Positions 2,413 to 16,253 of a stretch of 43,899 bases of DNA are shown in pieces; position 1 is the stretch's first letter, and each line of letters begins with the position of its first letter. The DNA lies in the NCBI GenBank assembly GCA_964374125.1, contig CAYJXL010000002.1, positions 1 to 43,899 of the forward strand, written 5' to 3'. The position numbers and the translations under genes are program-made. The notes beneath the pieces are model-generated. The model was not told the origin of the DNA and ran no database searches. It saw nothing but the letters and a program-made list of their open reading frames with translations. This DNA is from Candidatus Woesearchaeota archaeon (GTDB lineage: Archaea > Nanobdellota > Nanobdellia > SCGC-AAA011-G17 > UBA489).

Positions 2413-3432
2413 ATGAACGAAACAATTGATCTTCTTCAGTACCTTCCAACAGACATCATAACGCAAGAAGAAAGGAAATACCCATTGCACGTACAACACG
2501 ACGAAATCTCGATAGGCCTAAGTTACCAAGCACCGTTGCATAATCAAACAGGCGAATGCGGCACGCAAGAGTTCTCCTGCACTATACCTCGCTACATAGC
2601 AAAGAATGAGCGTACCTTCGAAGTGCTCGATCTTCTGCAGGCAGAGATGGGAAAGACACAGAATGGAACCCTATCATTCTCAAATTGTGAACCGAAGATT
2701 ATCAACGCAGTTATGCGGTGGTTCGACCAAGAAGGATTGCTAGATAAAAATAAATGGCGATGGAGTACTAAGGTTAATATTAATGAACCGATAGATCAAG
2801 CCCGCAAGACCAAAATAGAGGGGGATTGCACTGACTATTGGCTTAGCAAGACGAAAGTAACAAAAGAACAAGCGTATCCTAAAAGAGTAACTTACGTAAA
2901 ACAATCACCACACAAAGAACCGCAAAACAAAGGAACGCTGGTTCTAGAGTACAGAAACAACCTCTTTAGCCAGGTTATCAAAAATTTAGTAAGGAAGGTA
3001 ACCTACGAACAGATTACAAACGAACAACCGGAGCTCATCAGAGGTTATATGCGAGGGATTATCGCTGGTGAGGCATGCGTTAATGACGACCCAAAAAGCA
3101 GGCATTTCACAGTGCATATATCTGCTACAAAGCCTGAAGAAAGAGCGATTTATAAGAACTGCTTAGAAAATATCGGCTTAGAGGCAAAGATTTATAGCAA
3201 CTACAAAGAGATGTTAATCTCCAGATTAAAAAATCTTATCCAACTATTGAATCTACGATTAATGACTCTCAGCCCACGCAAATATGCAAAATTCCTCTAC
3301 ATGATGCAAAGGTATTCCGATATAAAAGAAAAAACAGGTTACTTCATGGGGGAGAAAAAGGGCATATGGAACAAGCACCCTCAAGAGAAAATCGATAAGA
3401 TCATCGAGCTATACAAAAGTGGGATAACCTGA
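2413..3432 (+). CDS. LAGLIDADG-like (homing-endonuclease fold) protein that ends inside an HTH module
   Basis: 339 aa. 'LIRGYMRGIIAGEACVNDD...HISATKPEERAIYKNCLENIGLEAKIY..ISRLKNLIQLL' looks like a LAGLIDADG motif plus its beta-sheet scaffold. A weaker first pseudo-domain lies around 'LDLLQAEMGKTQNGTLSFSN'. The TGA at 3430-3432 cuts an HTH repeat in half. Confidence 0.55.
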   Translation: MNETIDLLQYLPTDIITQEERKYPLHVQHDEISIGLSYQAPLHNQTGECGTQEFSCTIPRYIAKNERTFEVLDLLQAEMGKTQNGTLSFSNCEPKIINAVMRWFDQEGLLDKNKWRWSTKVNINEPIDQARKTKIEGDCTDYWLSKTKVTKEQAYPKRVTYVKQSPHKEPQNKGTLVLEYRNNLFSQVIKNLVRKVTYEQITNEQPELIRGYMRGIIAGEACVNDDPKSRHFTVHISATKPEERAIYKNCLENIGLEAKIYSNYKEMLISRLKNLIQLLNLRLMTLSPRKYAKFLYMMQRYSDIKEKTGYFMGEKKGIWNKHPQEKIDKIIELYKSGIT

Positions 3433-3519
3433 ACCGAAGACATAGCAAATCATGTAGGTGTCAGTACAATCAAAGTAAGCAGAGTGCTAAGAGAAAGCAA
3501 TTTGCGTAAAAAAAATTAG
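3433..3519 (+). other. in-frame post-TGA extension encoding the recognition half of the interrupted HTH module
   Basis: In the frame of 2413, 3433-3516 reads TEDIANHVGVSTIKVSRVLRESNLRKKN and ends at TAG 3517-3519. It completes '...KIDKIIELYKSGIT' into a module matching the two HTH repeats of the next ORF. Confidence 0.5.
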
Positions 3520-3911
3520 TGAACTACAGCGAAGAAATCAAACAAAAGATCATAGCGTATATAAAAGATGATCCAACAATGTCGAACGAACAAGTTGCAA
3601 AAGTATTCAATATAAGCAGATCAGCAATACAACGAGTACGTACAAAATACCACTGTAGGAGACCACGAAATACAATTAAAACACCACAAGAAAAAGTTGA
3701 TCGTATCATTCAGATATATCGACAAAACCCAACAGCGAAACTGAAAGATATTGCGTATGAAGTTGGCGTAAGTGATAATGTCGTGTCAAACGTTCGAAAG
3801 AGATACGGTTTAACGCATCTAGGGTACATGCATATTATCGGAAATAACAATCGAAAATATAAACAACAAAATAAAAATAAACTGCTCAATAAAGATAAGT
3901 CAAAAGTTTAG
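3519..3911 (+). CDS. tandem helix-turn-helix protein (two HTH repeats)
   Basis: 130 aa with a GTG start. The repeats are 'EEIKQKIIAYIKDDPTMSNEQVAKVFNISRSAIQRVRTKY' and 'QEKVDRIIQIYRQNPTAKLKDIAYEVGVSDNVVSNVRKRYGL'. The GTG overlaps the upstream TAG by 1 nt, directly after an A8 run. Confidence 0.55.
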   Translation: MNYSEEIKQKIIAYIKDDPTMSNEQVAKVFNISRSAIQRVRTKYHCRRPRNTIKTPQEKVDRIIQIYRQNPTAKLKDIAYEVGVSDNVVSNVRKRYGLTHLGYMHIIGNNNRKYKQQNKNKLLNKDKSKV

Positions 3912-3931: not shown

Positions 3932-4336
3932 TCATCTATAAGATTTTTGTCGTGCTTTCCGCGGCTTAGAATCATTCGGTTTGTGAGGTTCGTTCACACG
4001 ACTGTCGTCCACGATAAGATGCCGATCGTAGCTCAAAAAGTCTTGTCTCAATTGCTTGTTCTTCGTAAATTCAACCAACGCTTTTGCAACACATCCTCTC
4101 GCAGCTTCCGCTTGCGCGTGCCATCCGCCGCCAAAGACATTGATGTCGACATTGATCTTCTTTGCGTAATCGCCTGCAATCTCCAAAGGTTCTTGTACCA
4201 ACAGCCGCGCCATCTTCGGCCCATACGTATCAAGCAGCTGATGGTTAATCCGAATGAACCCCTGTCCATCCCGCAACGTCGCTCTCGCTATCGCCCTCTT
4301 CCGTCGTGATGATACATGAACAATCTTAGTTGCCAT
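3932..4336 (-). CDS. rps9: 30S ribosomal protein uS9
   Basis: 'SSRRKRAIARATLRDGQGFIRINH...GGGWHAQAEAARGCVAKAL...DSRVNEPHKPN..KARQKSYR' is the canonical uS9 pattern, including the C-terminal ..SYR. Confidence 0.95.
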   Translation of the reverse strand: MATKIVHVSSRRKRAIARATLRDGQGFIRINHQLLDTYGPKMARLLVQEPLEIAGDYAKKINVDINVFGGGWHAQAEAARGCVAKALVEFTKNKQLRQDFLSYDRHLIVDDSRVNEPHKPNDSKPRKARQKSYR

Positions 4337-4685
4337 AGATTACTGGCCTCTTCATCTGTTTTTTCTCGTGCACTGCTATTGGAACTCCAGGAGTACAAAT
4401 ATCTTCGGCCATCATCACGGGGATAAACAAATAATCTTCTCTTCTTCGTCTTGTCAGGCGATACTTATTATTGACAATTCCAATCTGCCGCTGTTCATGC
4501 ATAACGTCCAAATAATGAACAATAGCGAGATTAGTAAGACTAATTCCAGCTCTTGCGGCTAACGCTTGTGCTCCACTAACAACCTCGGAAAGCGTTGGGC
4601 TTCTCCCCTCCATCCTCCGAACAGCTTGGACAGCAACTGAAATATACAGCGTCAAGTTCATTTCACGAAGATCATTCTCATCCAT
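4326..4685 (-). CDS. hypothetical protein inserted between rpl13 and rps9 (possibly a winged-helix fold)
   Basis: The ORF fills the 351-nt rpl13-rps9 gap. With Met10 (MDENDL..) as start it begins 2 nt after the rpl13 stop. It overlaps the rps9 start by 11 nt. I recognise no family. Confidence 0.45.
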   Translation of the reverse strand: MDENDLREMNLTLYISVAVQAVRRMEGRSPTLSEVVSGAQALAARAGISLTNLAIVHYLDVMHEQRQIGIVNNKYRLTRRRREDYLFIPVMMAEDICTPGVPIAVHEKKQMKRPVIYGN

Positions 4686-4687
4686 TG

Positions 4688-5110
4688 TTAATTCCTCCCC
4701 AGGTGGAAACATAATTCCTGTAATGTCATGTATTTTAAGCTTTGCGTCTTGCTGACATTCGCCCCAGCAACAGTAGCAAGCGTCTTCCCCTCAAATTCTT
4801 TTGGAACGCCGACATAGCACATAACTCGCTGCAGTGCTGTTTTGCCCTTAAATTGCCTGTACGGCAACATCCCGCGAATGACGCGCTTCAAGAACCGATG
4901 CTCCTGTCTGTAAACAAACGGCCCAGTCTTGGGCATCCCCCGCTCCAGTCGGTGCTTGTAATGATCCAAGAGCGGTCTTCTGTTCCCTGTAATGACTGCA
5001 TGTTCGCTGTTCACAATCACAATCGCATCGCCAAGCAACGCCCTCTTCGCCGCATAGCTCGCAAGCCGTCCAACAACCAAGTTCGTCGCGTCAATGATCA
5101 TATTAGCCAA
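4688..5110 (-). CDS. rpl13: 50S ribosomal protein uL13
   Basis: 'MIIDATNLVVGRLASYAAKRALLGDAIVIVNSEHAVITG...' is the typical archaeal uL13 N-terminus. 140 aa. Confidence 0.95.
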   Translation of the reverse strand: MANMIIDATNLVVGRLASYAAKRALLGDAIVIVNSEHAVITGNRRPLLDHYKHRLERGMPKTGPFVYRQEHRFLKRVIRGMLPYRQFKGKTALQRVMCYVGVPKEFEGKTLATVAGANVSKTQSLKYMTLQELCFHLGRN

Positions 5111-5465
5111 CGATCCTCACCCCTTTGCCTGTGGGATTCTCTTTGAGCAACGCTAATAACGTAATCGCCTTGCCTGTTTTGTTAATGCTCGCAAGCGCAC
5201 CGTCAGAGAACTTCCACGCTGCCACTGTAATCTTCCGCTCGAGAACATCATTCCCCAAGACTTTTCCAGGCACGACAATGAGCTCTTTGTCTCGACACAC
5301 CTTGTTTAGATCTCTAATGGTAACCTCACGCCTGATTCTCGTGGGCCGTTCCAAATCAGAAGCCACTCTTCTCCAGATCTCGACCTTATGCTGAGCGCTC
5401 GCTACTTGCAACATCTTGATCATCTCCTGTAGTCTTGGATTCGTAGGGCCTGTTCGTACTGCCAT
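5103..5465 (-). CDS. rpl18e: 50S ribosomal protein eL18 (L18e)
   Basis: 'MAVRTGPTNPRLQEMIKML...RPTRIRREV..LNKV...VVPGKVLG' matches L18e, a family found only in archaea and eukaryotes. Start set at Met8 (ATG at 5465). Confidence 0.9.
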   Translation of the reverse strand: MAVRTGPTNPRLQEMIKMLQVASAQHKVEIWRRVASDLERPTRIRREVTIRDLNKVCRDKELIVVPGKVLGNDVLERKITVAAWKFSDGALASINKTGKAITLLALLKENPTGKGVRIVG

Positions 5466-5619
5466 GGTAAAACGCTGAAGAATCATCGCTACTGGACGCG
5501 TGAGCTCGCAGCGTATCTTTTGCTTCGAATGAAAGCTTTATAAAAGCATCGATTCCTCAGCAGGCAAAAATGTATACACAAGACTGATTCCATTTAAAGT
5601 ATTTAGCATAGGGTACGTT

Positions 5620-5988
5620 TTATTCAAGTGGTATGCGCTTCAGACCGATGCGATCATAAACACGATCGGAACTAAGTATCTCATCGCCTTGCGCGAAGGC
5701 CGCATGCAATGCGTCAAAGGTATGCAGCTTGTTCTCCTGCATGAAGTGAGCCGCAAGCAATAGTTTCGTCCGATCCGCACCACGAACCTCCGCAATCTCA
5801 GTCACGTCCATAACAATACGTTCTGGATCAAGTTGCATGCGTTCTGACAAGAGAAGCATCTCGATGACGGTGACAACAGATGTCCAAAGTCTATCTCGAT
5901 GCTGTTCAAAAAGACGTTTCGCTGAACTCTTCAACCAATCAGTCGTCTTGATAAGTGCAAGGAAGAAATCAGTATCAGCATACGTCAC
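5620..5988 (-). CDS. vapC: PIN-domain ribonuclease toxin (VapC family)
   Basis: 122 aa. The acidic residues fall in PIN positions ('YADTDFF', 'VIEML', 'TFDALHAA', 'LSSD'). It overlaps the upstream AbrB-like gene by 4 nt. Confidence 0.75.
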   Translation of the reverse strand: MTYADTDFFLALIKTTDWLKSSAKRLFEQHRDRLWTSVVTVIEMLLLSERMQLDPERIVMDVTEIAEVRGADRTKLLLAAHFMQENKLHTFDALHAAFAQGDEILSSDRVYDRIGLKRIPLE

Positions 5989-6221
5989 GCTCTCACCTGG
6001 TAAAGTGCAGTCTCTCGAATCAATTTCTTAAGGCGCTTGAGAGAGAGCTTCCGTGCTTTGCCAGCGACTTCCTGAAGATCCTTTACAGGATCCTTAGGTA
6101 CAGGAAGAAGGACAATCTCCCCAGCTGCGGGTACTGCAATGAACCGATCGCCATATTTCTTGCGGAGTTCCTCTTTTAGATACAAGCGTCCTTTCGCATC
6201 GCATATAGTAGTAAATGTCAT
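5985..6221 (-). CDS. vapB: AbrB/SpoVT-type antitoxin (VapB family)
   Basis: 'ICDAKGRLYLKEELRKKYGDRFIAV..GEIVLLPV' is a swapped-hairpin AbrB-like motif. Start set at Met23 (ATG at 6221), which has 'tttatata' about 25 nt upstream. Confidence 0.7.
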   Translation of the reverse strand: MTFTTICDAKGRLYLKEELRKKYGDRFIAVPAAGEIVLLPVPKDPVKDLQEVAGKARKLSLKRLKKLIRETALYQVRA

Positions 6222-6325
6222 ACGATAGATGTAGTGGGGAAGTATATAAACTTTTCCCACCAATAACTGTTTGGGGTATTGGCTCAACTCAGCCTAAAGT
6301 ACGAGAGATCGGCAATTCGTAACCA

Positions 6326-6333
6326 TTATATAA
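6326..6333 (+). promoter_or_regulatory. TATA box (ttatataa) about 28 nt upstream of the orphan tRNA-Leu 5' half
   Basis: Position and sequence fit an archaeal tRNA promoter. The intact tRNA copy has no equivalent A/T-rich box at about -28. Confidence 0.5.
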
Positions 6334-6357
6334 TATTTGAACTGATTTGCATCACCC

Positions 6358-6404
6358 GCGGGAGTCGCATAGCCTGGTCAAGTGCGCTAGCTTGAGGGGC
6401 TAGT
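6358..6404 (+). repeat. orphan copy of the 5' 47 nt of tRNA-Leu(GAG) (att-like direct repeat)
   Basis: 6358-6404 is identical, base for base, to 9548-9594 (acceptor 5' strand, D-arm and the complete anticodon arm). Confidence 0.9.
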
Positions 6405-8742
6405 CCTTGGCAAAACCGAAGATATCATTGAATTGTTGTCCATAGTAAGCTCCGCCCAGATAGAGATTCAGTGCCATCTCTGGAGAGAAAACTGTAGATC
6501 CGGAATCACGAGCCGAAGGCAAGCGACTAACAACTTGTATCTGATGTGTAACGGGATTGTATTCTAAGATCTCATCAGTTGGACCAGATCCTGTAGTATA
6601 TCCGCCAAAGAGAAGGAATGTACCCCTCGCCGGATCGAAGAGTGCATTAAGTCCTGTTCGCCCGTTCGGCAATATTTCCGGAAGCGTGACTGCTTGCCCT
6701 GTCGCTGGTGTAAACTTAATGATGTTTAATGCAGATGTGGAACCACCGAAGAGGTACATCGACTGATCATTTGTGTTGTATGCGCCTGCACCGAACGCGA
6801 ATTCTCGTGGCAACTGCGCACTGAGCGTCCTTAAACGCTGGCTGGCAGGCCGCGCTGGATCCCACTGCTGTATCGTTTGCAGGGTGCCTCCAGGCGCATT
6901 GCCTCCAAAGACATACACATTCTGGTTAGCAGGATCAGTGATGGCAACGGCATTGCTTATGCCGCTCGGAAGGACCTCCTGCTGCAGTCTGATCTGGCTT
7001 CCAGCAGGTGCAGAAGGATTGATTTCATAGATCGACGCAAGAGGGTTATACTGGGAGTCAGAGCCGCCAAAGACAAGAATCTTATTTCCATTCCACGCTG
7101 CCGCGGCACCAGAAAAAGGTGTCGAGAATCGATCGGCGAGCATGTTAATCGGTGTGAACATATTTGTTTCCTGAAAGGCAAGTATTGTGTCAAGAGGGTT
7201 ATACTGGGAGTCAGAGCCGCCAACGAGGTAGGTTATTCGACGGTTAGGGTCTCGGACTGCTGCGCTCCGCGATATTACCGAAGGCAGCGCTTGTATATTA
7301 TATGCTTGGCCGGTCTGCGGATTGAATGCAACAATCTCAGGGTGATGGTAAGGACCACAGTCTGGTGAGCCAAGGCCGTAATTCATACCACCTGCGACAA
7401 CAAGGAGCCCTGTCACAGGATCTGCAACCGCTTTCAGCTTCCATCGTCCCTCAGGCAGTTGCCCAACCCGAACAAACCCCTGACTTGGGTTATTGGGATC
7501 AAAAGCAAGAATGCCGTTGTCGCAAAGAAAGTTTTCTCTCGGACCAGGACCGATGTTACCGCCGATGAGGTAAAATTTTCCTGTTACTGGATTAAATGCT
7601 TCCGCAGCATCGGAACGTAGTGGAATTGTTGTGAGTAATGTAAACGTTCCGCCTTGCTGTCCTCCTGGTATGAACTGATAAAGCTGACCGATCCAATTGC
7701 GAGGGCTGATATTACGATTACCGAACGCGTAGATTACCCCTGTTCGAGGATCTCGCGCTGCATTTTCAACATAAAAAGGCCCACTTGGGGGGGATACTAA
7801 CAAACGACGAATGCGCGAGCCTGGCGGAAGGTTTAGATCATACACTGTCACTCTGTTGTCAGTCGTAGACCAACCGAAAAGATATACAACATCTGCTACA
7901 GGATCGTACGTGCCAGAAATCGCTGAGTCGTAGCTCGGAAGACGATCTGGCAAAAGTATGCACTGATTGGTATCCGGATTATACTCCATGATCTGATCTC
8001 TTGGCGGATATGGCGGATCAGCAGCACTACCGCTGAAGATGTAGGCTTTACTTCTTCGTGAATCCCAAACAGCGACAGCTAGATATACCCTGTATGGACA
8101 ATGAGCGACGATGCGTGATTGAAGGTCAACAGGATTGTGGGGGTTGATCTCAACAACATTATCGACAGTGTATATCAAATGTCCGTCAATGCTATATGAG
8201 CCACCGAATATATACATAATGCCTGTCAGAGGGTCAATGACCATTGTTGATGAGAATATGCCGCGAGGAGCTGCCGGTGTTGCTGCAGGCAAAGATCCTA
8301 TGATCGTACTGACAGGATGACTATTGGTATATGCATATGGTGCAGAAATCGCAATTCCGCCCTGACCTCCAGGATCGATGGCAACAGCTTGCATATATAT
8401 AATTGGTAGCCCGCCTGGGACAGGAAAATCAAAACTACCTCCCGGCTGAAGCTGAAGAATAAGAAACTGTCCTGGACCAAGAGGTCTAACGCTTAAGATT
8501 GCGCCAGGACCGAACGCTGCAGAGAAATCTTCTCGCCATGGTTTGAAGCTGATAAGAATGTAGACGATTTGTGCTTGCGATGCAACATTCTCGACCGTGA
8601 GCTGCGCCATCTGTCCTGGAATGTTCGTGCTAATGTGAATCTTCGGAATCAAACCATTGGAACCCGGTGTTCCGATCTGCACTTGTGCAAATGTCACCGG
8701 GAGGATCATCAATATGCCCATGACGAGAGTGACGATGCGCAT
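6400..8742 (-). CDS. secreted Kelch-repeat / beta-propeller protein
   Basis: 780 aa. Signal peptide 'MRIVTLVMGILMILPVTFAQVQ'. At least 10 Kelch-like blades are recognisable ('YIFGGS','YLFGW','YLIGGN','VVAGGMNYG','YLVGGSDSQYNPL','LVFGGSDSQYNPL','VYVFGGN','MYLFGGS','LLFGGY'). Confidence 0.8.
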   Translation of the reverse strand: MRIVTLVMGILMILPVTFAQVQIGTPGSNGLIPKIHISTNIPGQMAQLTVENVASQAQIVYILISFKPWREDFSAAFGPGAILSVRPLGPGQFLILQLQPGGSFDFPVPGGLPIIYMQAVAIDPGGQGGIAISAPYAYTNSHPVSTIIGSLPAATPAAPRGIFSSTMVIDPLTGIMYIFGGSYSIDGHLIYTVDNVVEINPHNPVDLQSRIVAHCPYRVYLAVAVWDSRRSKAYIFSGSAADPPYPPRDQIMEYNPDTNQCILLPDRLPSYDSAISGTYDPVADVVYLFGWSTTDNRVTVYDLNLPPGSRIRRLLVSPPSGPFYVENAARDPRTGVIYAFGNRNISPRNWIGQLYQFIPGGQQGGTFTLLTTIPLRSDAAEAFNPVTGKFYLIGGNIGPGPRENFLCDNGILAFDPNNPSQGFVRVGQLPEGRWKLKAVADPVTGLLVVAGGMNYGLGSPDCGPYHHPEIVAFNPQTGQAYNIQALPSVISRSAAVRDPNRRITYLVGGSDSQYNPLDTILAFQETNMFTPINMLADRFSTPFSGAAAAWNGNKILVFGGSDSQYNPLASIYEINPSAPAGSQIRLQQEVLPSGISNAVAITDPANQNVYVFGGNAPGGTLQTIQQWDPARPASQRLRTLSAQLPREFAFGAGAYNTNDQSMYLFGGSTSALNIIKFTPATGQAVTLPEILPNGRTGLNALFDPARGTFLLFGGYTTGSGPTDEILEYNPVTHQIQVVSRLPSARDSGSTVFSPEMALNLYLGGAYYGQQFNDIFGFAKD

Positions 8743-8743
8743 G

Positions 8744-9049
8744 TTAGCATTTCACCATTATTCTTATCTGTTGCGGAAGTTGCGCGCATGTGATCTCATT
8801 CTCTTCGGAAAAAATTTCATGGAGCGTTACGTCCTGCGGGGGCGCACTGACTTTGGTGGCCCATTCTTCATTTCTTTCTTCCTGTTGGAGCACACGTTCT
8901 TGCTCAACAGTTTGCGGGTGGGTGATCAGCTCTTGAGCATCCTTAATGGCATATGGTTGTGTGCTCTTTGATAAAAAAAGAACAAGAGCGAAGACCCCAA
9001 TGATTAGTATTCCATAAACTATTACATTACTTTTCCTCTTTTTGACCAC
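8744..9049 (-). CDS. small single-pass membrane protein (start uncertain)
   Basis: 'KKRKSNVIVYGILIIGVFALVLFLSK' is a transmembrane segment. A GTG at 9049 avoids the overlap with the integrase fragment; the longest ORF would start at 9136. The ORF ends 1 nt before the Kelch gene start. Confidence 0.35.
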   Translation of the reverse strand: MVKKRKSNVIVYGILIIGVFALVLFLSKSTQPYAIKDAQELITHPQTVEQERVLQQEERNEEWATKVSAPPQDVTLHEIFSEENEITCAQLPQQIRIMVKC

Positions 9050-9473
9050 CGGTTTGGTTACTCCCCAGTATTTTAATACCTTTCGGTTTTTTTGGGTACA
9101 TACCCAGCTTCTGGGGGTCTGCCGCAGCATGCTCAACGTATTGAGTCCTTGGAGATTCCATGTCCTCCTGCGTCACCTCGTCAAGGTTCTTCGTCGTAAA
9201 CGTGAGGAGCGTCATGAAGTGCCCCACGTTCGAGCTAAGCCGCGCAGCCCCGATCTTCTTCCGCGCCCTGTTGTGCACGGTCTTCCCGAGCCGCGCGTCG
9301 CGGACGTATCGTGTCACGAGTTCCTTGTTCCGCTCCGTCACGTTCGGATCCTGCAGGAACCGCTCGAGCGCACGCTCAAGCAAGCGTTCACACTTCCCCA
9401 GGCGCACGTCAACTTCTTCCATAGTAATCTTTTTAAGCACCGCTCGTCCTTCACCGTACGGGTGCTCGATCAT
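9027..9473 (-). pseudogene. tyrosine-recombinase/integrase N-terminal fragment (catalytic domain missing)
   Basis: 'ERNKELVTRYVRDARLGKTVHNRARKKIGAARLSSNVGHFMTLLTFTTKNLDEVTQEDME' resembles the SAM-like N-domain of archaeal and phage integrases. I saw no R..HxxR..Y catalytic region downstream in any frame. Confidence 0.45.
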
Positions 9474-9547
9474 GCACAGCGCCCGCCTTTATCAGGATTC
9501 GCCTGTGTTGCGGTCGCCGGTCACATGATCTGGTGCATCGCCCGGTT

Positions 9548-9633
9548 GCGGGAGTCGCATAGCCTGGTCAAGTGCGCTAGCTTGAGGGGCTAGTTCCTTA
9601 GTGGATTCGTAAGTTCAAATCTTACCTCCCGCA
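9548..9633 (+). tRNA. trnL: tRNA-Leu (anticodon GAG), class II with a long variable arm
   Basis: Hand-folded. Acceptor stem: gcgggag/ctcccgc. D-stem: gcat/gtgc. Anticodon stem: ctagc/gctag with loop ttGAGgg. Variable arm: 15 nt. T-arm: gtaag-ttcaaat-cttac. Discriminator: A. CCA is not encoded. Confidence 0.9.
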
Positions 9634-9693
9634 TCTTTAGCAACGCTCAACTAAGAAGAACTACAACTGCATAGTCTTTTTATTCACGAAAGT

Positions 9694-9701
9694 TTATAAA
9701 T
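9694..9701 (+). promoter_or_regulatory. TATA box (ttataaat) for the HEPN-MNT operon
   Basis: Centred about 27 nt upstream of the ATG at 9724. Confidence 0.45.
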
Positions 9702-9723
9702 ATTACAAATCACTAGTAAGTAT

Positions 9724-10086
9724 ATGAAACAAGAAGTCCAAAACTGGTGGCAGCAAGCCAAGGACGATCTCGATGCTGCCGAATACACCTTCCGTGGTGC
9801 ACGATACAGAATAGCTGCTTTTTTATGTCAACAAGCGGTAGAAAAGGCGTTCAAAGCGCTCCTGTTGGAAAAGACAGGGATAATCAGGAAAATACACGAT
9901 TTAGTTGAGCTAGGAAAAGATCTAGATATTCCAGATCGTTTACTAGCAGAAATAAAAGAGCTTACACTTGCTTACATCTACTCAAGATACCCTGACGTAA
10001 AGCAAGAGCCAAATCTAAAAGAAAAGGTCAACCAATTTCTTAAAAGCACAAAGGAGGCTATGCAATGGGTAGAAGAAAATCTCTAA
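9724..10086 (+). CDS. HEPN-domain protein (toxin partner of MNT)
   Basis: 120 aa. 'AAEYTFRGARYRIAAFLCQQAVEKAFKALLLEK..IIRKIHDLVELG' is the typical HEPN helical pattern with the R..H..L motif. It overlaps the nucleotidyltransferase gene by 22 nt. Confidence 0.8.
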   Translation: MKQEVQNWWQQAKDDLDAAEYTFRGARYRIAAFLCQQAVEKAFKALLLEKTGIIRKIHDLVELGKDLDIPDRLLAEIKELTLAYIYSRYPDVKQEPNLKEKVNQFLKSTKEAMQWVEENL

Positions 10087-10382
10087 AAGAAAGACTGGTG
10101 AACTTCAAAAAAACAGTTAACAGGGATTTTCCAATACAGACAATGATCCTCTTTGGAAGTAGGGCAAGAGGAAAGACTGGCAGAGACAGGGACGTGGACT
10201 TAATAATTGTAAGCCCCAGATTCAAATGGCTCGATTTTTTTGAGAGAGGAGCAAAAATGTATGATTACTGGGATTTAAGAATGCCAGCCGACTTTTTGTG
10301 CTATACGCCGGAAGAATTCAAGAAATTAAGTAGACATACAACCATCGTCTCTGAAGCAATCAAAGAAGGCATCAAGATTTAA
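10065..10382 (+). CDS. minimal nucleotidyltransferase (MNT-type antitoxin)
   Basis: 'ILFGSRARGKTGRDRDVDLIIVS' matches the GSxxxG...DxD motif of the polymerase-beta-like NTase fold. 105 aa. Confidence 0.85.
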   Translation: MGRRKSLKERLVNFKKTVNRDFPIQTMILFGSRARGKTGRDRDVDLIIVSPRFKWLDFFERGAKMYDYWDLRMPADFLCYTPEEFKKLSRHTTIVSEAIKEGIKI

Positions 10383-10412
10383 AGCCCATTCAGAAAAATT
10401 CGACCAATGATA

Positions 10413-10437
10413 GTAAGTTCAAATCTTACCTCCCGCA
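10413..10437 (+). repeat. orphan copy of the 3' 25 nt of tRNA-Leu(GAG) (att-like direct repeat)
   Basis: 'gtaagttcaaatcttacctcccgca' is identical to 9609-9633 (T-arm, 3' acceptor strand and discriminator). Confidence 0.9.
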
Positions 10438-10454
10438 TAAACACATAATGAAAC

Positions 10455-11303
10455 ATGAGAACAATTAAAGCAGACTTACGGAATTATTTGAGAAGCCGAA
10501 GCGACATGTCGGTTTTTGACTTCAACGACATCATCGATAGAGCGCATAAGAAGCTAGGCAACGGCGGAATTCTGGGTGTAACAAACTATCATGACGAGCG
10601 CTACGAACAATTTGTGCAACGCCCGGGCTACGAACGCAAAAATCTTGGAAACGCGGTCTACATTCCTGAAAAAGACATGCTCATTGTCAAGGGACAAACA
10701 ATACCAACAAAGGAAGGACCACTCTGTGCCATGGGTAGCCCTTCACACAAACACGTTCCTGAGCATCTATCTCTTGAGGAAACTATCAAAGTCGTTCAAG
10801 AGCAGAATGGCATGATCATTGTGCCAGGCCCGTATCGGCTATATGGTGTAGGCGCGTTCTTGGAAAGCCACTCTCATTATCTTGAATCATGTGACGCCAT
10901 CGAGGTTTTTAATGGGCAGGGAACACTCTGGCTCCCGGGACTCTTGCAACGACATGCAAATGAACGTGCAGTGACATGGTACAAACGAATGAAACAAACA
11001 TACTCGCATCTAGGAGCAATCACCGCCTCAAACGGCAGCTCGCTGCGCGAAATCGGCAGAAATAATACGTTAATGGAAATGCCAGAGCACTATGACATAT
11101 TTCAGACAAAAGAAGATGTTATCACAGTTCTACGCTGCGCGATACGTGAGAGTACGCCTGAACGTGCTGAACGCTACAGTGCATGGGGAATGGAGTTGAT
11201 GCATTTCCTGATCGTAAAATGGGATCACAATCCGCTCAGCTACTGGTGGAAGGGAGTCCCAAATGCGCATCTCGATCCGCTATTCAGGAACGAGAGTCTG
11301 TAA
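10455..11303 (+). CDS. PHP-domain-like protein with apparently degenerate metal-ligand motifs
   Basis: The PHP motif order is preserved but the ligands are altered. 'KADLRNYLRSRSDM' stands for DLHxHS..SDG, 'GVTNYHD' for ITDHD, 'IVPGPY' for ..HP, and 'ITASNGSSLREIG' for GSDAH...iG. 'AIEVFNG' is retained. Confidence 0.4.
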   Translation: MRTIKADLRNYLRSRSDMSVFDFNDIIDRAHKKLGNGGILGVTNYHDERYEQFVQRPGYERKNLGNAVYIPEKDMLIVKGQTIPTKEGPLCAMGSPSHKHVPEHLSLEETIKVVQEQNGMIIVPGPYRLYGVGAFLESHSHYLESCDAIEVFNGQGTLWLPGLLQRHANERAVTWYKRMKQTYSHLGAITASNGSSLREIGRNNTLMEMPEHYDIFQTKEDVITVLRCAIRESTPERAERYSAWGMELMHFLIVKWDHNPLSYWWKGVPNAHLDPLFRNESL

Positions 11304-11562
11304 CCAATAAAATTTTTCAAGCCAGAAAAACCGATGATCATAGTATTTGTTGAGGGACGAGGTCAGCAAAGTAAAGGGAAATGTATCCAGCCTTATCAGA
11401 CGGACAAAATTGCTCAAGTCAAAAAATCGCTGCTCACTGCAAAGTTAACCATAGCGAAGAACAAAGAAAACACTTATAATGAGAACAGATAAAACTGCAT
11501 GAATAGAAAAGCAAGCACCGTTAGGTATCAAAGTTATTTCAATTCTATATTACATAGGATCA

Positions 11563-11940
11563 GTGATTGGGGTGATTGTCGGGCTGATGTTTCTTCTCGG
11601 AGCTGGACTTATCGCAGCCATCATACCGTCTTTACGGCTGTTCAGCTCTATATTCGCCGGCCTCGCTATTGTCATCTTTGCGTTAAGCATACTTTCATTC
11701 TTTATCGGAAGAGACCTATGGAAAGGAAAAAATTGGGCTAGAGTAGTTATTATAGTAAGTTCTGTAATTGGATTAGTGATGGCAGTTTATTTCCTCGTTG
11801 GGGGTATTACGTATCACAGTGACTGGAGAGGTTACGCGGACATTTGCAATGGTATCATTGGTATAGTAACAGACACGCTCATAGGGGGCTACCTCATGTT
11901 TAATAGCAAGGTAAAAAAATATTTTTCAAAAGACCAATAG
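11563..11940 (+). CDS. small membrane protein with 4 predicted transmembrane segments
   Basis: 125-aa ORF with a GTG start and four hydrophobic stretches of about 20-24 aa. I recognise no family. Confidence 0.5.
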   Translation: MIGVIVGLMFLLGAGLIAAIIPSLRLFSSIFAGLAIVIFALSILSFFIGRDLWKGKNWARVVIIVSSVIGLVMAVYFLVGGITYHSDWRGYADICNGIIGIVTDTLIGGYLMFNSKVKKYFSKDQ

Positions 11941-11953
11941 AAGAAATAAGGGT

Positions 11954-12733
11954 TTATTTGATTTTCTTCACCAGCTTCTCAAACTCATCCAGCTTGTCAT
12001 CAAAGACTTCCACTGCCCTTACAAGGATTTCCTTCAACGTTAATTGTCCCCATGACTCTAAATAAAAGATAAAGGTTTCCTTGCTCGCAGTCACTTCAAC
12101 GCCATTCTTTTCAAGGATACCCTCATGTGATTCCCTCCACTTGAGAACATCCTTAATCTCTAGCCCCTGTCCTTTCTGTCCCAGGACGCCAGAAGGAATC
12201 TGCTCCAGAGATTTCTTGATGTCGCTATCCTTCGTCGTTTTTAATTCAGGAGAGCCGCGATAGTAAAGCAATCCCGGCGAGAACTTCGCATGATCCTTCC
12301 CTCGTCCAAGAACAGCAACAGCCTCCAGCTTCAATTCTTGATCCTCAGCAAGCTTCACAATAGGCATTTTCTCATGCACAGGAACACAATCCTTGTCCTT
12401 GCTCTCCAGACTGCTGCTGTACACCGTGCACGGTCCCTTCGCTTTTAATGCAAAAAGCAGCTGGCAATGATTGCACCCCTTGCCATTGCACTTGCAGTCA
12501 GCCATAAAGTTGTACGACTTCAAGTCCGTCTTGATCGGTATCAGTCCCAAGCGGTGCGCGATGATCTCGTCGTAAAGCGCAGAACTATTCTTCTGAAACG
12601 AGACCTCCTCAATCGCCAGTGTCGGCACGTAATTCATCACGTATCGCCTGATCATGTTTGCGATAGCCGGCGTGATGCCCTCGAGAACGAAAACAGCTTT
12701 GTTGGCGTCTTTGTGTAAAACCATAAATTTCAT
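11954..12733 (-). CDS. rpoD: DNA-directed RNA polymerase subunit D (Rpo3)
   Basis: 'VLEGITPAIANMIRRYVMNYVPTLAIEEVSFQKNSSALYDEIIAHRLGLIPIKTD' plus the Cys cluster 'CKCNGKGCNHCQ' match archaeal RpoD. Confidence 0.9.
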   Translation of the reverse strand: MKFMVLHKDANKAVFVLEGITPAIANMIRRYVMNYVPTLAIEEVSFQKNSSALYDEIIAHRLGLIPIKTDLKSYNFMADCKCNGKGCNHCQLLFALKAKGPCTVYSSSLESKDKDCVPVHEKMPIVKLAEDQELKLEAVAVLGRGKDHAKFSPGLLYYRGSPELKTTKDSDIKKSLEQIPSGVLGQKGQGLEIKDVLKWRESHEGILEKNGVEVTASKETFIFYLESWGQLTLKEILVRAVEVFDDKLDEFEKLVKKIK

Positions 12734-12758: not shown

Positions 12759-13667
12759 TTATAAACGTTGCTTCGAAGCTGAAAATCCAGCAGAAGAGCC
12801 ATTTTTCCGCACGATAACTGCGTACTCATCAAGCAGATTAAAGGGAACAGAAACAGACTGCAGTCGCAAAAACCGAATAACAGATGTCATGATCTGCGAA
12901 AGCGGCCCAAAGAGAGATGCAGATTTTATAGCCAAGGTTTTCAATGATCGATGCCTCCCAAGATGTCGCAGATAAACGATCCTGTAGCCGGTATCGTGAA
13001 ACAACCGCTCAAGCGAGCTTCTCGTGAAATAATGCAAATGCTCATTGGGCTTCAGATGAAACCATCGTCGACCGAGAAAGGAAAACATCGCGCTTCCCCC
13101 ATCCGGCGTCACTAAAAATAAGACACCGTCATCCTTCAGCCAGGAACGAACCTTCATCAGCAGCTTCTTGGGTTGAGGAACATGTTCAATCAAGTCATTC
13201 ATCACAATAACGTCAAAAGATTCTTTGGGGTAAGACGCAGCAAGAACGTTGCCAATGGTGATGTGAATGCCGGAATTGTGAAAGGAGCGTCTCACTCGTG
13301 CGTTGATGTCCATGCCTTCGCACAACCATCCGCGCTCCTTGGCAAGAAACAAGAGCGTTCCAATGTTGCAACCAATATCCAATATCTTCCCCTTTCGGCC
13401 AAGCACTTGTTCAATGATCGCGAGACGCTTCCGAAATGTCTGGCGGTCAGCATCTTTTGTTTCAGCGTAGTATGAATGCGGCGAGATCTCGTCTGAATTG
13501 TACATCGCCTCAAGAACCTTGGGTTTTAGTCGCGGAGTAACATAATAAAGGCCGCACTCAGTGCATCGTACAATCGTGAATCCATCTCGTACGCAAGCAT
13601 GCGTCGCAGTATGACTGCCGCATACGCCGCAAGATACAGATTCCAGGTCATCGAAACGAATGTTCAT
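12759..13667 (-). CDS. class I SAM-dependent methyltransferase with an N-terminal double zinc ribbon
   Basis: The N-terminus has 'CGVCGS...CTECG'. Motif I is 'KILDIGCNIGTL', followed by 'DVIVMNDLIEHV'. Confidence 0.75.
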   Translation of the reverse strand: MNIRFDDLESVSCGVCGSHTATHACVRDGFTIVRCTECGLYYVTPRLKPKVLEAMYNSDEISPHSYYAETKDADRQTFRKRLAIIEQVLGRKGKILDIGCNIGTLLFLAKERGWLCEGMDINARVRRSFHNSGIHITIGNVLAASYPKESFDVIVMNDLIEHVPQPKKLLMKVRSWLKDDGVLFLVTPDGGSAMFSFLGRRWFHLKPNEHLHYFTRSSLERLFHDTGYRIVYLRHLGRHRSLKTLAIKSASLFGPLSQIMTSVIRFLRLQSVSVPFNLLDEYAVIVRKNGSSAGFSASKQRL

Positions 13668-13700: not shown

Positions 13701-16253
13701 TTAAAAAGCTTGCGTCGCCGATTTGCGCTTGAAAAGCTTGAACAGCTCAAGTCCAAAGAAGCCCGCGCTTGCGAGAAGCACAACGTACGCCCAATCCTGA
13801 ACCATTAAAGGAACAACTTTAAACGCAATATGAAGCGGCGTATAAATGACCAGCGCTTGAAGCCCTATCGAAACAAGGGCCGCGAGGTTCAACCAGCGAT
13901 TGCTAAAAAAGTTCAGCGCAAACGCTTTTTGTGATCTGCTGCTGTACGCGCGGAAAAGCTCAAAGAGAATAAGCGTTGAAAACGCAACCGTCCTCGCTTT
14001 TGGCAAGTCATCAACATTATAGTAAAAGAGGGCTAGCACAATCACAGTTCCTATGATGCCGGTAACAATAATGTTGCCAGTCATGCCGCTCGTAATGCGC
14101 TCGCGAACGCTTCTCGGTTTTCGTCGCATGACATCTTCCGCAGGAGTATCGATGCCCAATGCCAGCGCAGGCCAGCTGTCAGTCATCAAATTGACCCAAA
14201 GAAGATGAACAGCAAGGAGGGGCAATGGCAAGCCAATAATGAGAGAGACAATGATGACGCCAACCTCTACTGTGTTCGCGCACAACAGATAATCAACAAA
14301 TTTCCGGATGTTGTCATACACCACGCGTCCATTTTTAACAGCATTCACGATGGTTGCAAAGTTGTCATCAAGCAAGACCATCTCCGCAGCATCCCTGCTG
14401 ACATCAGTTCCCTTCAGCGACATCGCAACACCAACATCCGCCCGTTTCAACGCAGGTGCGTCATTGATGCCATCGCCCGTCATCGCGACAATCTCGCCAT
14501 TCGCCTGCAGTGCCTTCAGGATGCGTACTTTATGGGAAGAGCTCGTGCGCGCAAAGATGCTGCAGTCTTTCACAGCAACATGAAGCTCTTCATCAGTCAT
14601 CACATCAAGTTCTTTGCCAATAACAATCCTTCCATCGAGTCCGACTTGATGCGCAATCGCCTTCGCCGTCAGGGGATGGTCTCCAGTAATCATCATGCTT
14701 CTGATGCCAGCAAGCTTGCATAGCTCAATAGCTTCTTTCACGTTATCCTTCGGCGGATCAATCATGCCCATCAAGCCAACAAAGTGCATCTCTCCGTGCT
14801 TCTCGTACGCCATCGCCAGCACGCGCAACGCTTCCTCAGCCAGCTGCTGGTTCACCTTGAGTATCTTCTCTCGATCTTTGGGAAGCAGCCTTCGTGTTTT
14901 TCCTCCGATGTTGATATACTTGCACATGTCCAAAATAATCTCCACCGCGCCTTTGTAGTAGCTGAATCCCTTGTGAACCGTAGCCATGTACTTCTTGTCC
15001 GCATCAAAAGGAATCTCATCAACGCGCTCAAGCCGGTCAGCGCCGCCCTTCAACGCCGCATACAACAAAGCCATCTCTGTCGGATCGCCAACTGTCTTTG
15101 TCGCGTTGTTGCACGTCATAGCAATCTCCAGAAGAAGCTGAAACTCTTTTGGATCAACCCTCTCGCCATCTTTGTAAAATTCTCCATCAGCGTTATATCC
15201 ATACCCTGTCGTTTCGATAACAGAATTGTTGACGTAAATCTTGCGCACCGTCATCTCATTCTTCGTCAGTGTTCCCGTCTTGTCAGAGCAAATAACAGTA
15301 ATATCACCCAATGTCTCAATGCTCTTGAGTTTTTTCACGAGCGCATTGCTCCGAATCATCGTCTGCACCGAAAGCGCCAGGCAGATGGTCACGACCGCAG
15401 GCAGCCCCTCGGGAACAGCCGCAACCGCAAGGCTGATGGACGTCAGAAGCATCTCATAAATGCCAAGGCCTTTCAAAACGCCAATGGCAAACACAAGCGC
15501 CGCAATCAACAAAACAAGAACGCCCAAAAAACGACCGAGCTGCGCAAGCTTCACTTGCAGTGGCGTCTTTGTTTCCTTCACTTCTTGAATCAACGACGCA
15601 ATCTTGCCAACCTCTGTATCCATGCCAGTCTCAACCACGATACCCTTGCCAGTGCCGCGAACGACGATTGTGCTTGAGTACATCATATTGTTCCGTTCAG
15701 CAAGTTCAACATCCTTGTTAATGGGTCCAATTTGCTTGGTGCACGGCTGGCTTTCCCCAGTCAACGAAGCCTCGCTGGTCTGCAAATTTCGTGCTTCAAA
15801 GATGCGGATATCAGCAGGCACCTTGTCGCCAGCCTCAAGAAAAACAACGTCCCCGGGAACAAGAAGGTTAGAGGGAATCTCGCGGACAACGCCGTTGCGT
15901 ATGACCTTCGCTTTTAGCGTCGTTAATTTCTTCAAGAGTTCCACCGCACGCTCTGCTTTGTATTCCTGCACAAATCCCAAGATCGCGTCAAATACAATAA
16001 TGCCAAGAATCACATACGCATCAAGGTACTCGCGCAGAAAAAAAGAGACAAGGGCTGCAAAAAGCAGGATGTAAATGACGATCTCATTAAACTGCCGAAA
16101 GAAGATTTGTATGGGATGTATTCTTCGCTCTTCTCGAAGCTTGTTCTCCCCATGTCGCTTCAACCGCTGCTCCGCCTCAACATCAGTAAGCCCGTTGACA
16201 GAAGTGTCCTTGAGGCGAAGAACCTCTTGAACAGCAAGACTGTGATAGGTCAT
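13701..16253 (-). CDS. P-type cation-transporting ATPase (type II, Ca2+/SERCA-PacL-like)
   Basis: Signature motifs 'CSDKTGTLT', 'TGDGINDAPAL', TM4 'PEGLP', 'TGES' and 'MITGDH' are all present. 850 aa. Confidence 0.9.
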   Translation of the reverse strand: MTYHSLAVQEVLRLKDTSVNGLTDVEAEQRLKRHGENKLREERRIHPIQIFFRQFNEIVIYILLFAALVSFFLREYLDAYVILGIIVFDAILGFVQEYKAERAVELLKKLTTLKAKVIRNGVVREIPSNLLVPGDVVFLEAGDKVPADIRIFEARNLQTSEASLTGESQPCTKQIGPINKDVELAERNNMMYSSTIVVRGTGKGIVVETGMDTEVGKIASLIQEVKETKTPLQVKLAQLGRFLGVLVLLIAALVFAIGVLKGLGIYEMLLTSISLAVAAVPEGLPAVVTICLALSVQTMIRSNALVKKLKSIETLGDITVICSDKTGTLTKNEMTVRKIYVNNSVIETTGYGYNADGEFYKDGERVDPKEFQLLLEIAMTCNNATKTVGDPTEMALLYAALKGGADRLERVDEIPFDADKKYMATVHKGFSYYKGAVEIILDMCKYINIGGKTRRLLPKDREKILKVNQQLAEEALRVLAMAYEKHGEMHFVGLMGMIDPPKDNVKEAIELCKLAGIRSMMITGDHPLTAKAIAHQVGLDGRIVIGKELDVMTDEELHVAVKDCSIFARTSSSHKVRILKALQANGEIVAMTGDGINDAPALKRADVGVAMSLKGTDVSRDAAEMVLLDDNFATIVNAVKNGRVVYDNIRKFVDYLLCANTVEVGVIIVSLIIGLPLPLLAVHLLWVNLMTDSWPALALGIDTPAEDVMRRKPRSVRERITSGMTGNIIVTGIIGTVIVLALFYYNVDDLPKARTVAFSTLILFELFRAYSSRSQKAFALNFFSNRWLNLAALVSIGLQALVIYTPLHIAFKVVPLMVQDWAYVVLLASAGFFGLELFKLFKRKSATQAF

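Follow-up and report, generated by a model that had tools for sequence, protein, structure and literature searches.

The window analysed here is a stretch of 43,899 nucleotides from a Woesearchaeota-type archaeon (contig CAYJXL010000002.1 of assembly GCA_964374125.1). This report concerns the junction of rpoD (RNA polymerase subunit D) with rpl18e (ribosomal protein L18e), where a tRNA-Leu gene is accompanied by two elements, referred to as element A and element B, and by further cargo genes. The genome is metagenome-assembled, consists of 89 contigs with 1.07 Mb and is 84.5% complete. All sizeable open reading frames (ORFs) between 3.9 and 16.3 kb of the window were annotated by Pfam scans, and tRNA genes were called with ARAGORN and Rfam. 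For comparison, RpoD, L18e, S11 and RpoN were located, together with the surrounding DNA, in 40 relatives from the same family or order, for which intron-split and partial tRNA copies were added by BLAST. Element boundaries were defined by an exact-repeat search of the window and by anchored alignments to contigs of closer relatives. These are L075 (GCA_053533615.1, ~80% identical to the window), L076, L077 and L080, an aquifer metagenome contig with 88% DNA identity to the window. The short contigs of the closer relatives were reached via a search for homologues of one of the junction genes, orf282.

At the junction, rpoD (11954-12733, minus strand, Pfam RNA_pol_A_bac and RNA_pol_L; RpoD shows 41-69% identity to 38 relatives) and rpl18e (5103-5486, minus strand, Pfam Ribosomal_L27A/L18; L18e shows 39-56% identity to that of 35 relatives) are co-oriented. 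The distance from the rpoD stop to the rpl18e start is 6,467 bp (6,470 bp in the gap census given below), with the probable rpl18e start at 5465 (MAVRTGP...), as placed by alignment with relatives. In these points, our results agree with a preliminary description of this DNA, and all of the accessory features which it listed between the two genes are present, including an integrase fragment, a Kelch-repeat cargo gene, two toxin-antitoxin (TA) pairs and a degenerate PHP-like protein.

Adjacent to rpl18e are a leader block and a TATA-like box (5489-5546, minus strand), which were recognized by their conservation in relatives. They are followed by a predicted VapBC pair, which consists of the gene for a PIN-domain toxin (VapC, 5620-5988, minus strand, PF01850, E=3e-7) and a VapB-like ORF of 100 aa without Pfam match (5985-6287, minus strand), the two overlapping by 4 bp. 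Next is a region with the predicted native tRNA-Leu promoter and an orphan 47-nt copy of the tRNA 5′ part (6327-6404, plus strand), which represents the left attachment site (attL) of element A. The body of element A (6405-9547, minus strand) carries the gene for a Kelch-repeat protein of 780 aa with an N-terminal signal-like segment (6400-8742, minus strand, assigned by Pfam), a small transmembrane (TM) ORF without Pfam match (orf130, 8744-9136, minus strand) and the N-terminal stump of an integrase (orf148, 9027-9473, minus strand), which has no Pfam match and was identified by its homology to tyrosine recombinases. The intact tRNA-Leu(GAG) gene (9547-9635, plus strand) was found by ARAGORN and by Rfam (50.3 bits). 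It is directly followed by element B (9636-10438, plus strand), which carries a HEPN gene (9724-10086, plus strand, PF05168, E=2e-27) and an MNT gene (10065-10382, plus strand, Pfam NTP_transf_2), the second predicted TA pair, and which ends in a second copy of the tRNA 3′ 26-mer (10413-10438). Between element B and rpoD, there are orf282, coding for the degenerate PHP-like protein (10455-11303, plus strand), and the gene for a membrane protein with four TM segments (4-TM protein, 11563-11940, plus strand), which is convergent with rpoD and ends 13 bp from the rpoD stop.

The two elements are delimited by exact repeats that are derived from the tRNA gene. The 5′ part of the tRNA (9548-9594) is repeated at 6358-6404 over 47 nt and the 3′ end of the tRNA (9609-9634) is repeated at 10413-10438 over 26 nt, both with 100% identity. 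Neither sequence occurs anywhere else in the 1.07-Mb assembly, and chance alone would not be expected to produce exact repeats of this length within 44 kb. Element A thus comprises 3.19 kb (6405-9547 plus one 47-nt core) with the Kelch gene, the small TM ORF and the integrase stump, while element B comprises only 0.8 kb (9635-10412 plus one 26-nt core), with HEPN and MNT as the only genes in the 779 bp between the repeats. For both elements, the empty site was found. In L080, the VapB start, the native promoter, an intact tRNA-Leu gene and orf282 are contiguous, and L075, L076 and L077 likewise lack element A. In the same four contigs, the tRNA 3′ end runs straight into the sequence upstream of orf282, so that element B is missing. 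The sequence which follows the second 26-mer in the window (aaacacataatgaaacATGAGAACAAT) matches the stretch that follows the tRNA in L080 and L075. The two tRNA duplications, described earlier as att-type, are true integration scars.

Element A has altered the tRNA gene that it targeted. The 45 bp upstream of the orphan half-tRNA match the region upstream of the intact tRNA in L080, and the last 29 bp upstream of the half-tRNA have 88% identity to the tRNA upstream region of G007, a relative from another genus (g8). The region upstream of the intact tRNA in the window was found by the anchored alignments to be unrelated to the tRNA upstream region of L080. The predicted native TATA box of the tRNA-Leu gene (ttatataata, 6327-6336) now precedes the 47-nt stump, inside which the stop codon of the Kelch gene is located. 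We interpret this arrangement such that the first 47 nt of the intact tRNA and the 74 bp upstream of it now derive from element A. A split tRNA, as in Nanoarchaeum, was also considered and rejected, since no whole tRNA results when the orphan 5′ piece (nt 1-47) is combined with the piece from the 3′ end (nt 63-88), and since both pieces are accounted for by the empty-site contigs.

The integrase of element A is truncated. Residues 7-107 of orf148 align only to the N-terminal ~100 residues of ORFs with 370-508 aa, which were found in six other genomes of the order; the three full-length homologues that were scanned carry the Phage_integrase domain (PF00589). A tblastn search of the region 6301-9600 did not reveal any remnant of the integrase catalytic domain (R..HxxR..Y). 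By its sequence, element A is a decayed, immobile remnant, which would be locked in place because its integrase has no catalytic domain. When a more intact version of element A was sought, the stump matched one distant relative on a metagenome contig and had matches in six of 240 genomes from the order, and none of these matches is located beside tRNA-Leu. The GC content of element A is 0.498 compared to 0.465 for the genome, and that of the integrase stump (0.55) is within the top 1%.

Two full-length paralogues of the Kelch-repeat protein are encoded elsewhere in this genome (C29:1900-4191 and C30:2898-5069, with 40% and 32% identity), and the protein is probably a member of a family of secreted beta-propeller proteins that has expanded in this lineage. 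Since the Kelch gene ends in TAG, this codon apparently continues to function as a stop in this genome. At C25:13570-13657, directly beside tRNA-Arg(CCG), ARAGORN called a tRNA of 88 nt whose anticodon is CUA and which it labelled as Pyl.

The HEPN-MNT pair of element B forms a two-gene operon with overlap, as do other TA modules on mobile DNA. The MNT protein carries GSRARGKTGRDRDVD, which corresponds to the GSx(n)DxD motif, and scores below the NCBIfam MntA cut-off. According to 99 homologues, the invariant residues of the HEPN protein are H58-D-L and R88-Y-P. H58 and R88 are 30 positions apart and do not form the contiguous Rx4-6H RNase motif that would be expected of a HEPN partner, and the assignment as a type VII-like TA pair is tentative. 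With a GC content of 0.386, element B is among the lowest 4.5%. HEPN-MNT homologues were found in eight other contexts, none of them beside a tRNA, and therefore the association with a tRNA is not a general property of this cassette family. The family, with a HEPN protein of 120 aa and an MNT protein of 105 aa, retains its gene lengths and overlap in many unrelated contexts, e.g. after rpS6e or beside PCNA (L092, L097, L104; L099). In L101 (3764-5170), the cassette is placed between imperfect direct repeats of ~175 bp with 82% identity, which include the beginning of a gene for a small membrane protein.

The preliminary description had counted tRNA-Leu among the accessory genes which interrupt the rpoD-rpl18e junction. 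Our comparison contradicts this. At least 25 of 39 relatives have a tRNA-Leu gene either between rpoD and rpl18e or next to one of these two genes at a contig end. ARAGORN reports a tRNA-Leu with GAG or AAG anticodon between rpoD and rpl18e at 21 loci, and in all 21 cases it is encoded on the rpoD strand. Copies missed by ARAGORN were added by BLAST, some of them intron-split (G014, G017, G025) and others partial or at contig ends. For the complete DPANN genome AR10, the order S13-S4-S11-rpoD-tRNA(leu)-L18e-L13-S9-rpoN has been listed (PMC10833476). With its presence in this genome and in at least 25 of 39 relatives, tRNA-Leu is best regarded as an ancestral, co-oriented part of the cluster in this order and not as an insertion. 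The tRNA-Leu of the window has 99% identity to that of L075, L076, L077 and L080, and the tRNA with GAG anticodon has one copy in the whole assembly. In the window and likewise in L075 and L076, the tRNA is on the strand opposite to rpoD, while it is co-oriented elsewhere, and we infer that the tRNA block was inverted at the genus level. In G014, G017 and G025, the junction tRNA-Leu (L015:2295-2400, L016:1888-1940, L048:8316-8421) has an apparent insert of 20-30 nt near the anticodon loop. These copies escape ARAGORN when this is run in bacterial mode.

That the junction is a recombination hotspot, as had been proposed, is borne out by the gap census. The rpoD-L18e gap varies strongly among 30 genomes (including this one), with a median of 418 bp, a minimum of 5 bp and more than 500 bp in 15 of the 30. 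The window has the maximum, with 3,188 bp being the largest gap among the relatives. The S11-rpoD gap (n=37) has a median of 23 bp and exceeds 250 bp in only four cases; in 33 of 37 relatives, 11-65 bp separate S11 from the downstream rpoD gene. In six genomes, rpoD and L18e are on separate contigs, compared to two for S11 and rpoD, and in G013 both contig ends at the rpoD/L18e break are inside tRNA-Leu.

The cargo at the junction is genus-specific and non-homologous between genera. It consists of VapBC and an S51 peptidase in G007, of MNT-HepT and MNT-HEPN in G006, of ParE-like toxins with a DUF2683 partner in G003 and G023 and with a DUF7557-like ORF in G015, and of DUF433 and DUF5615 in G028. 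AAA_14/DUF4143 or ATPase_2 proteins are encoded in G035, G002 and G012, and LAGLIDADG proteins in G021 and G027. Other relatives have a GNAT acetyltransferase, alpha/beta hydrolase-like and glycosyltransferase-like ORFs, or membrane proteins. Altogether, TA pairs from five TA families occur at the junction in seven genera.

Within the window, part of the cargo is older than elements A and B. The VapBC pair has orthologues in G007 (70% and 57% identical), which occupy the same divergent position beside the tRNA-Leu 5′ end. Its assignment is based on the PIN toxin, on the small overlapping gene that precedes it and on the conservation of the pair in G007, the VapB-like ORF itself having no Pfam match. 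At the DNA level, VapBC is 72% identical to G007, which is similar to the value for rpoD (65-68%) and thus suggests vertical descent of VapBC. The inverted tRNA, the presence of orf282 on the tRNA 3′ side and a methyltransferase gene upstream of rpoD are common to the window and L075 and are therefore genus-level features. The gene order in L075 is S9, two ORFs, L13, L18e (minus), an HD protein (plus), tRNA-Leu (plus), orf282 (plus), a 159-aa membrane protein (plus), rpoD (minus) and the methyltransferase (minus), so that an HD protein is found in place of VapBC. Element A and the 4-TM gene, as well as the place at which HEPN-MNT is found, are specific to this genome. DNA homology to the relatives ends at 11327 or 11482, before the 4-TM gene, and the corresponding slot in L075 and in L080-type contigs is occupied by the 159-aa membrane protein, which has no BLASTP match to the 4-TM protein. 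The latter does not have a significant Pfam match. Genomes with at least 80% identity differ structurally in four respects within a few kb, which is the pattern of a hotspot. With respect to the question of insertion versus vertical inheritance, elements A and B are recent insertions with empty sites, while the tRNA inversion, orf282 and the methyltransferase are inherited at the genus level and VapBC is common to G007.

For orf282, only four homologues (88, 79, 65 and 36% identity) were found among 5.8 billion proteins, and there was neither a Pfam match nor a match in a PDB sequence search. The 36% homologue, P0004, carries PF13263 (PHP-associated) and keeps the motifs DLHNH and SDGHS, which are changed to DLRNY and SNGSS in orf282. 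This protein is thus predicted to have a PHP-like domain without metal ligands. In L075 and L080, orf282 adjoins the tRNA; the homologues in L078 and L079 are found in a glycosyltransferase/RimK setting, with the 65%-identical homologue lying among glycosyltransferase and RimK genes.

A functioning rpoD-rpl18e operon was probably not cut at this site. We found that rpl18e has its own conserved upstream region, also in relatives with a compact junction. The leader block (5489-5518, core CTGCGAGCTCACGCGT) shares 87% identity with the rpl18e upstream region of G007, can also be aligned to L075 and, in part, to G008, and is preceded by the TATA-like box at ~5537-5546. Its consensus fold is weak (-3.5 kcal/mol), and the block might act as a leader element or as a promoter-proximal element for the rpl18e-rpl13-rps9 unit. 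Because of the conserved TATA box and leader, rpl18e-rpl13-rps9 appears to be a transcription unit of its own even where the junction is compact, and therefore insertions between the rpoD terminator, the tRNA and the rpl18e promoter need not disturb expression. In the window, co-transcription of rpoD and rpl18e would be implausible, given that the tRNA and five intervening genes have the opposite orientation.

The alpha-operon cluster is also dispersed at other places. As stated previously, S11, S4 and S13 are not found upstream of rpoD, where the gene for a SAM (S-adenosylmethionine) methyltransferase with a zinc ribbon (N-terminal CxxC...CxxC; 12759-13667, minus strand, Methyltransf_23) occupies the usual position of S11. 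An orthologue with 64% identity is found at the same place in L075. L21e...S13-S4 are on contig C19 (8389-11872), followed by a UPF0175 antitoxin-type gene and an ORF of 192 aa that is PIN-like by eye, and S11 is alone on C13 (2114-2893), near rpoH-rpoB and followed by a MazE/AbrB-type gene. Not only is rpoN absent downstream of rps9, it was not found anywhere in the 84.5%-complete assembly.

We consider it quite probable that the junction is a tRNA-Leu-anchored integration hotspot within the archaeal alpha-operon cluster, with two recent insertions and older cargo. The rpoD/rpl18e junction of Woesearchaeota-type archaea would be the boundary of two transcription units, which ancestrally contained a co-oriented tRNA-Leu(GAG/AAG), and it would be a hotspot because this tRNA resides there. 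The tRNA may serve as attachment site for elements with a tyrosine integrase and as a looser landing pad for small cassettes. Lineages would thus gather different cargo, often TA pairs, which resist loss. For the window, we infer an order of events by parsimony from few relatives. VapBC may have settled first beside the tRNA 5′ end, as it is common to genus g8. At the genus level, and in common with L075, the VapCB-tRNA block would then have been inverted, S11 would have parted from rpoD, and orf282 would have been added on the tRNA 3′ side. Element A would later have entered by recombination in the 47-nt 5′ part of the tRNA, leaving the native promoter on the orphan half, so that the working tRNA gene received its present 5′ half and upstream region from the element. 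Element B, the 0.8-kb HEPN-MNT cassette, would have entered at the tRNA 3′ end, with duplication of 26 nt. The integrase of element A probably lost its catalytic domain at a later stage, so that the element became fixed.

Several observations weigh against this interpretation. An intact integrase of the orf148 family was not found in the assembly, and no recombinase is encoded among the ORFs between the two 26-nt repeats of element B. A HEPN-MNT cassette with 84% DNA identity is located 3′ of orf282, without tRNA repeats, in six L080-type contigs, and thus the tRNA site may not be the only determinant of cassette movement. In the 19 relatives that were searched, no tRNA-derived repeats of at least 13 nt were found around the cargo, and therefore site-specific integration is assumed for the older insertions. 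The intact tRNA does not have an obvious TATA box at about -27. Finally, with GC within the top 12% and tetranucleotide distance within the top 18%, element A taken as a unit is inconspicuous in composition, and only the integrase stump and the HEPN-MNT cassette stand out by their GC content.

As an alternative, the gap might be a selected defence island, in which VapBC, HEPN-MNT, orf282 and the 4-TM protein act jointly as anti-virus modules beside essential genes. HEPN-MNT and PIN systems are components of abortive infection, and TA pairs of five families recur at the junction in seven genera. When the island proteins were compared to PADLOC-DB 2.0, MNT matched the candidate families PDC-S09 and PDC-M05A and the flanking methyltransferase had a partial match to mad2, but no defined system was found and the other eight proteins did not match anything. 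A scan against PHROGs gave no match for the island proteins, and NCBIfam gave only matches below cut-off for MNT and the Kelch protein. In addition, orf282 would be a PHP domain without metal ligands, its pairing with the 4-TM gene is not conserved, and it has a homologue in a cell-envelope/RimK context. TA genes are common throughout this genome, with ~15 PIN and 11 MNT matches per 1.07 Mb. We thus regard a selected defence island as unlikely, and the uncharacterised defence module that had been suggested for this region finds no support in these searches beyond the two predicted TA pairs.

General shuffling in a reduced DPANN genome, by illegitimate recombination, duplication and deletion, might also have opened the junction, with the tRNA repeats being by-products of local duplication. 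The alpha operon is indeed broken elsewhere, with S13-S4 on C19, S11 alone on C13 and rpoN missing. In addition, the tRNA block is inverted, the 4-TM gene and the gene for the 159-aa protein as well as VapBC and the HD protein have been swapped without repeats, and no att-type repeats were found in the relatives. However, both repeats are exact, begin or end at natural tRNA borders and enclose precisely those stretches which the empty-site contigs lack. There is also an integrase remnant 74 bp from one of the repeats, and the same architecture occurs at a tRNA-Gly on contig C39. Shuffling as the general explanation is therefore very unlikely.

Equally improbable is an assembly artefact, by which an empty-site chromosome was joined with a free circular element or a second strain via the 47-nt and 26-nt sequences: this is a metagenome-assembled genome of 89 contigs, the repeats of 26-47 nt are shorter than many reads and longer than small k-mers, and many assemblies of relatives break exactly at the rpoD-rpl18e junction, but a 47-nt repeat would be resolved by an assembler with a k of at least 55 or with read pairs, a free circle of 0.8 kb with only HEPN-MNT is implausible, and even then the elements would carry att sequences identical to the tRNA, so that the hotspot interpretation would hold.

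As a tRNA-anchored integration hotspot, the junction is a new and well-documented example of a structure type that is already known. Islands formed by tyrosine integrases at tRNA genes occur in bacteria and in Sulfolobales, Thermococcales and Methanococcales. They share with the junction the att site in a part of the tRNA, which is duplicated as direct repeats, the integrase gene beside one att site, the serial insertions that lead to a composite island, and decay with fixation. Unlike in usual tRNA islands, the tRNA is inside the alpha-operon cluster, between rpoD and rpl18e, element A used the 5′ part of the tRNA and left the native promoter on an orphan half, and the elements are tiny (3.2 kb and 0.8 kb) and reside in a Woesearchaeota-type DPANN archaeon of ~1 Mb. 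Compared to the alpha-operon/L18e cluster (PMC10833476), rpoD, tRNA-Leu, L18e, L13 and S9 are present in the same relative order, while this genome differs in having S13-S4 and S11 on other contigs, no detected rpoN, an inverted tRNA, 6.5 kb of inserted cargo and an extra ORF between L13 and S9. The two TA pairs resemble type II VapBC and type VII-like HEPN-MNT modules, which stabilise mobile DNA, in their PIN domain, in HEPN with the MNT motif, and in being located on or beside integrated elements.

The "suicidal" integrases of SSV-type elements (PMC7253208) are similar to that of element A in being archaeal tyrosine recombinases with a tRNA target and in not being intact when integrated. In SSV-type elements, attP is within the integrase gene, and integration splits this gene into two recoverable parts at the element ends (PMC7253208). 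Such a partitioned integrase was rejected for element A, where the att core is 74 bp outside the integrase start, a C-terminal integrase fragment is not present and the far end of the element is formed by the 3′ end of the Kelch gene with its stop codon. With the core outside the gene and no C-terminal fragment, the integrase would have been truncated by deletion and not by partition.

The tRNA gene and the transcription-unit boundary provide a cause for the variability of one junction in an otherwise conserved ribosomal/RNA-polymerase cluster throughout this DPANN order. Occupied and empty integration sites are documented here for Woesearchaeota-type archaea, in which mobile elements have been poorly described. 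The only tRNA-Leu(GAG) gene that was detected has been cut from its native promoter by an element which would be unable to excise, and this raises the question of how it is transcribed. For genome annotation, signals of a "broken operon" in DPANN genomes can mean tRNA-anchored cargo rather than loss of function.

A unit similar to element B was found on contig C39, where 33 nt from the 3′ end of tRNA-Gly(TCC) (4248-4333, minus strand) recur exactly at 3007-3039. The 1.2-kb unit between these repeats contains only a gene for a protein with winged helix-turn-helix and MNT domains (3142-3714) and small ORFs, which is the same architecture as in element B. Throughout the genome, which has 15 PIN and 11 NTP_transf_2 (MNT) matches per 1.07 Mb, eight of these 26 genes are within 2 kb of a tRNA, with 1.5 being expected, and none of 5000 permutations reached eight. 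By analogy to integron cassettes and to MITEs (miniature inverted-repeat transposable elements), which rely on a helper enzyme, small TA cassettes might be miniature integrative cassettes without recombinase, inserted at tRNA 3′ ends by an integrase acting in trans. This idea is doubtful at present. If correct, it would explain why one 1-Mb genome has two cassettes with exact tRNA 3′-end repeats of 26 nt and 33 nt and nothing else inside, why a sister population has the same cassette at a different position, and why PIN and MNT genes cluster near tRNAs.

Further TA-type genes were encountered near tRNA genes in this genome. A frameshifted PIN gene, paired with a ribbon-helix-helix (RHH) gene, is just outside the repeat-bounded unit on C39. 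On C53, tRNA-Leu(CAG) is separated by 14 bp from VapC with a MazE-type VapB, followed by a second PIN gene and a small adjacent ORF that is RHH-like by eye.

Small inserted ORFs also occur next to the junction. Downstream of rpl18e, the first gene of the rpl18e-rpl13-orf128-rps9 unit, are rpl13 (4688-5110, minus strand, Pfam), orf128 (128 aa, no Pfam match, 4326-4712, minus strand) and rps9 (3932-4336, minus strand, Pfam). On the other side of the junction, the methyltransferase gene is followed by one for a P-type ATPase (13701-16253, minus strand). LAGLIDADG-like ORFs are found at variable spots, 3′ of rps9 in the window (2413-3432) and in the rpoD-tRNA/rpl18e gap in G021 and G027, and in two further genomes from the order they are adjacent to integrase genes (positions in relatives are L034:8962-9691, L072:3773-4429, L058:398-1316 and L060:2587-3228). 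Small ORFs without Pfam match are wedged between rpl13 and rps9 in the window, L075, G003 and G007, or between rpl18e and rpl13 in G001 (orf128 in the window; L075:447-1216, L065:2164-2740, L031:9705-9998 and L043:9232-9546 in relatives). While the other wedged ORFs are not detectably related, orf128 is 37% identical to an ORF of 135 aa in L075.

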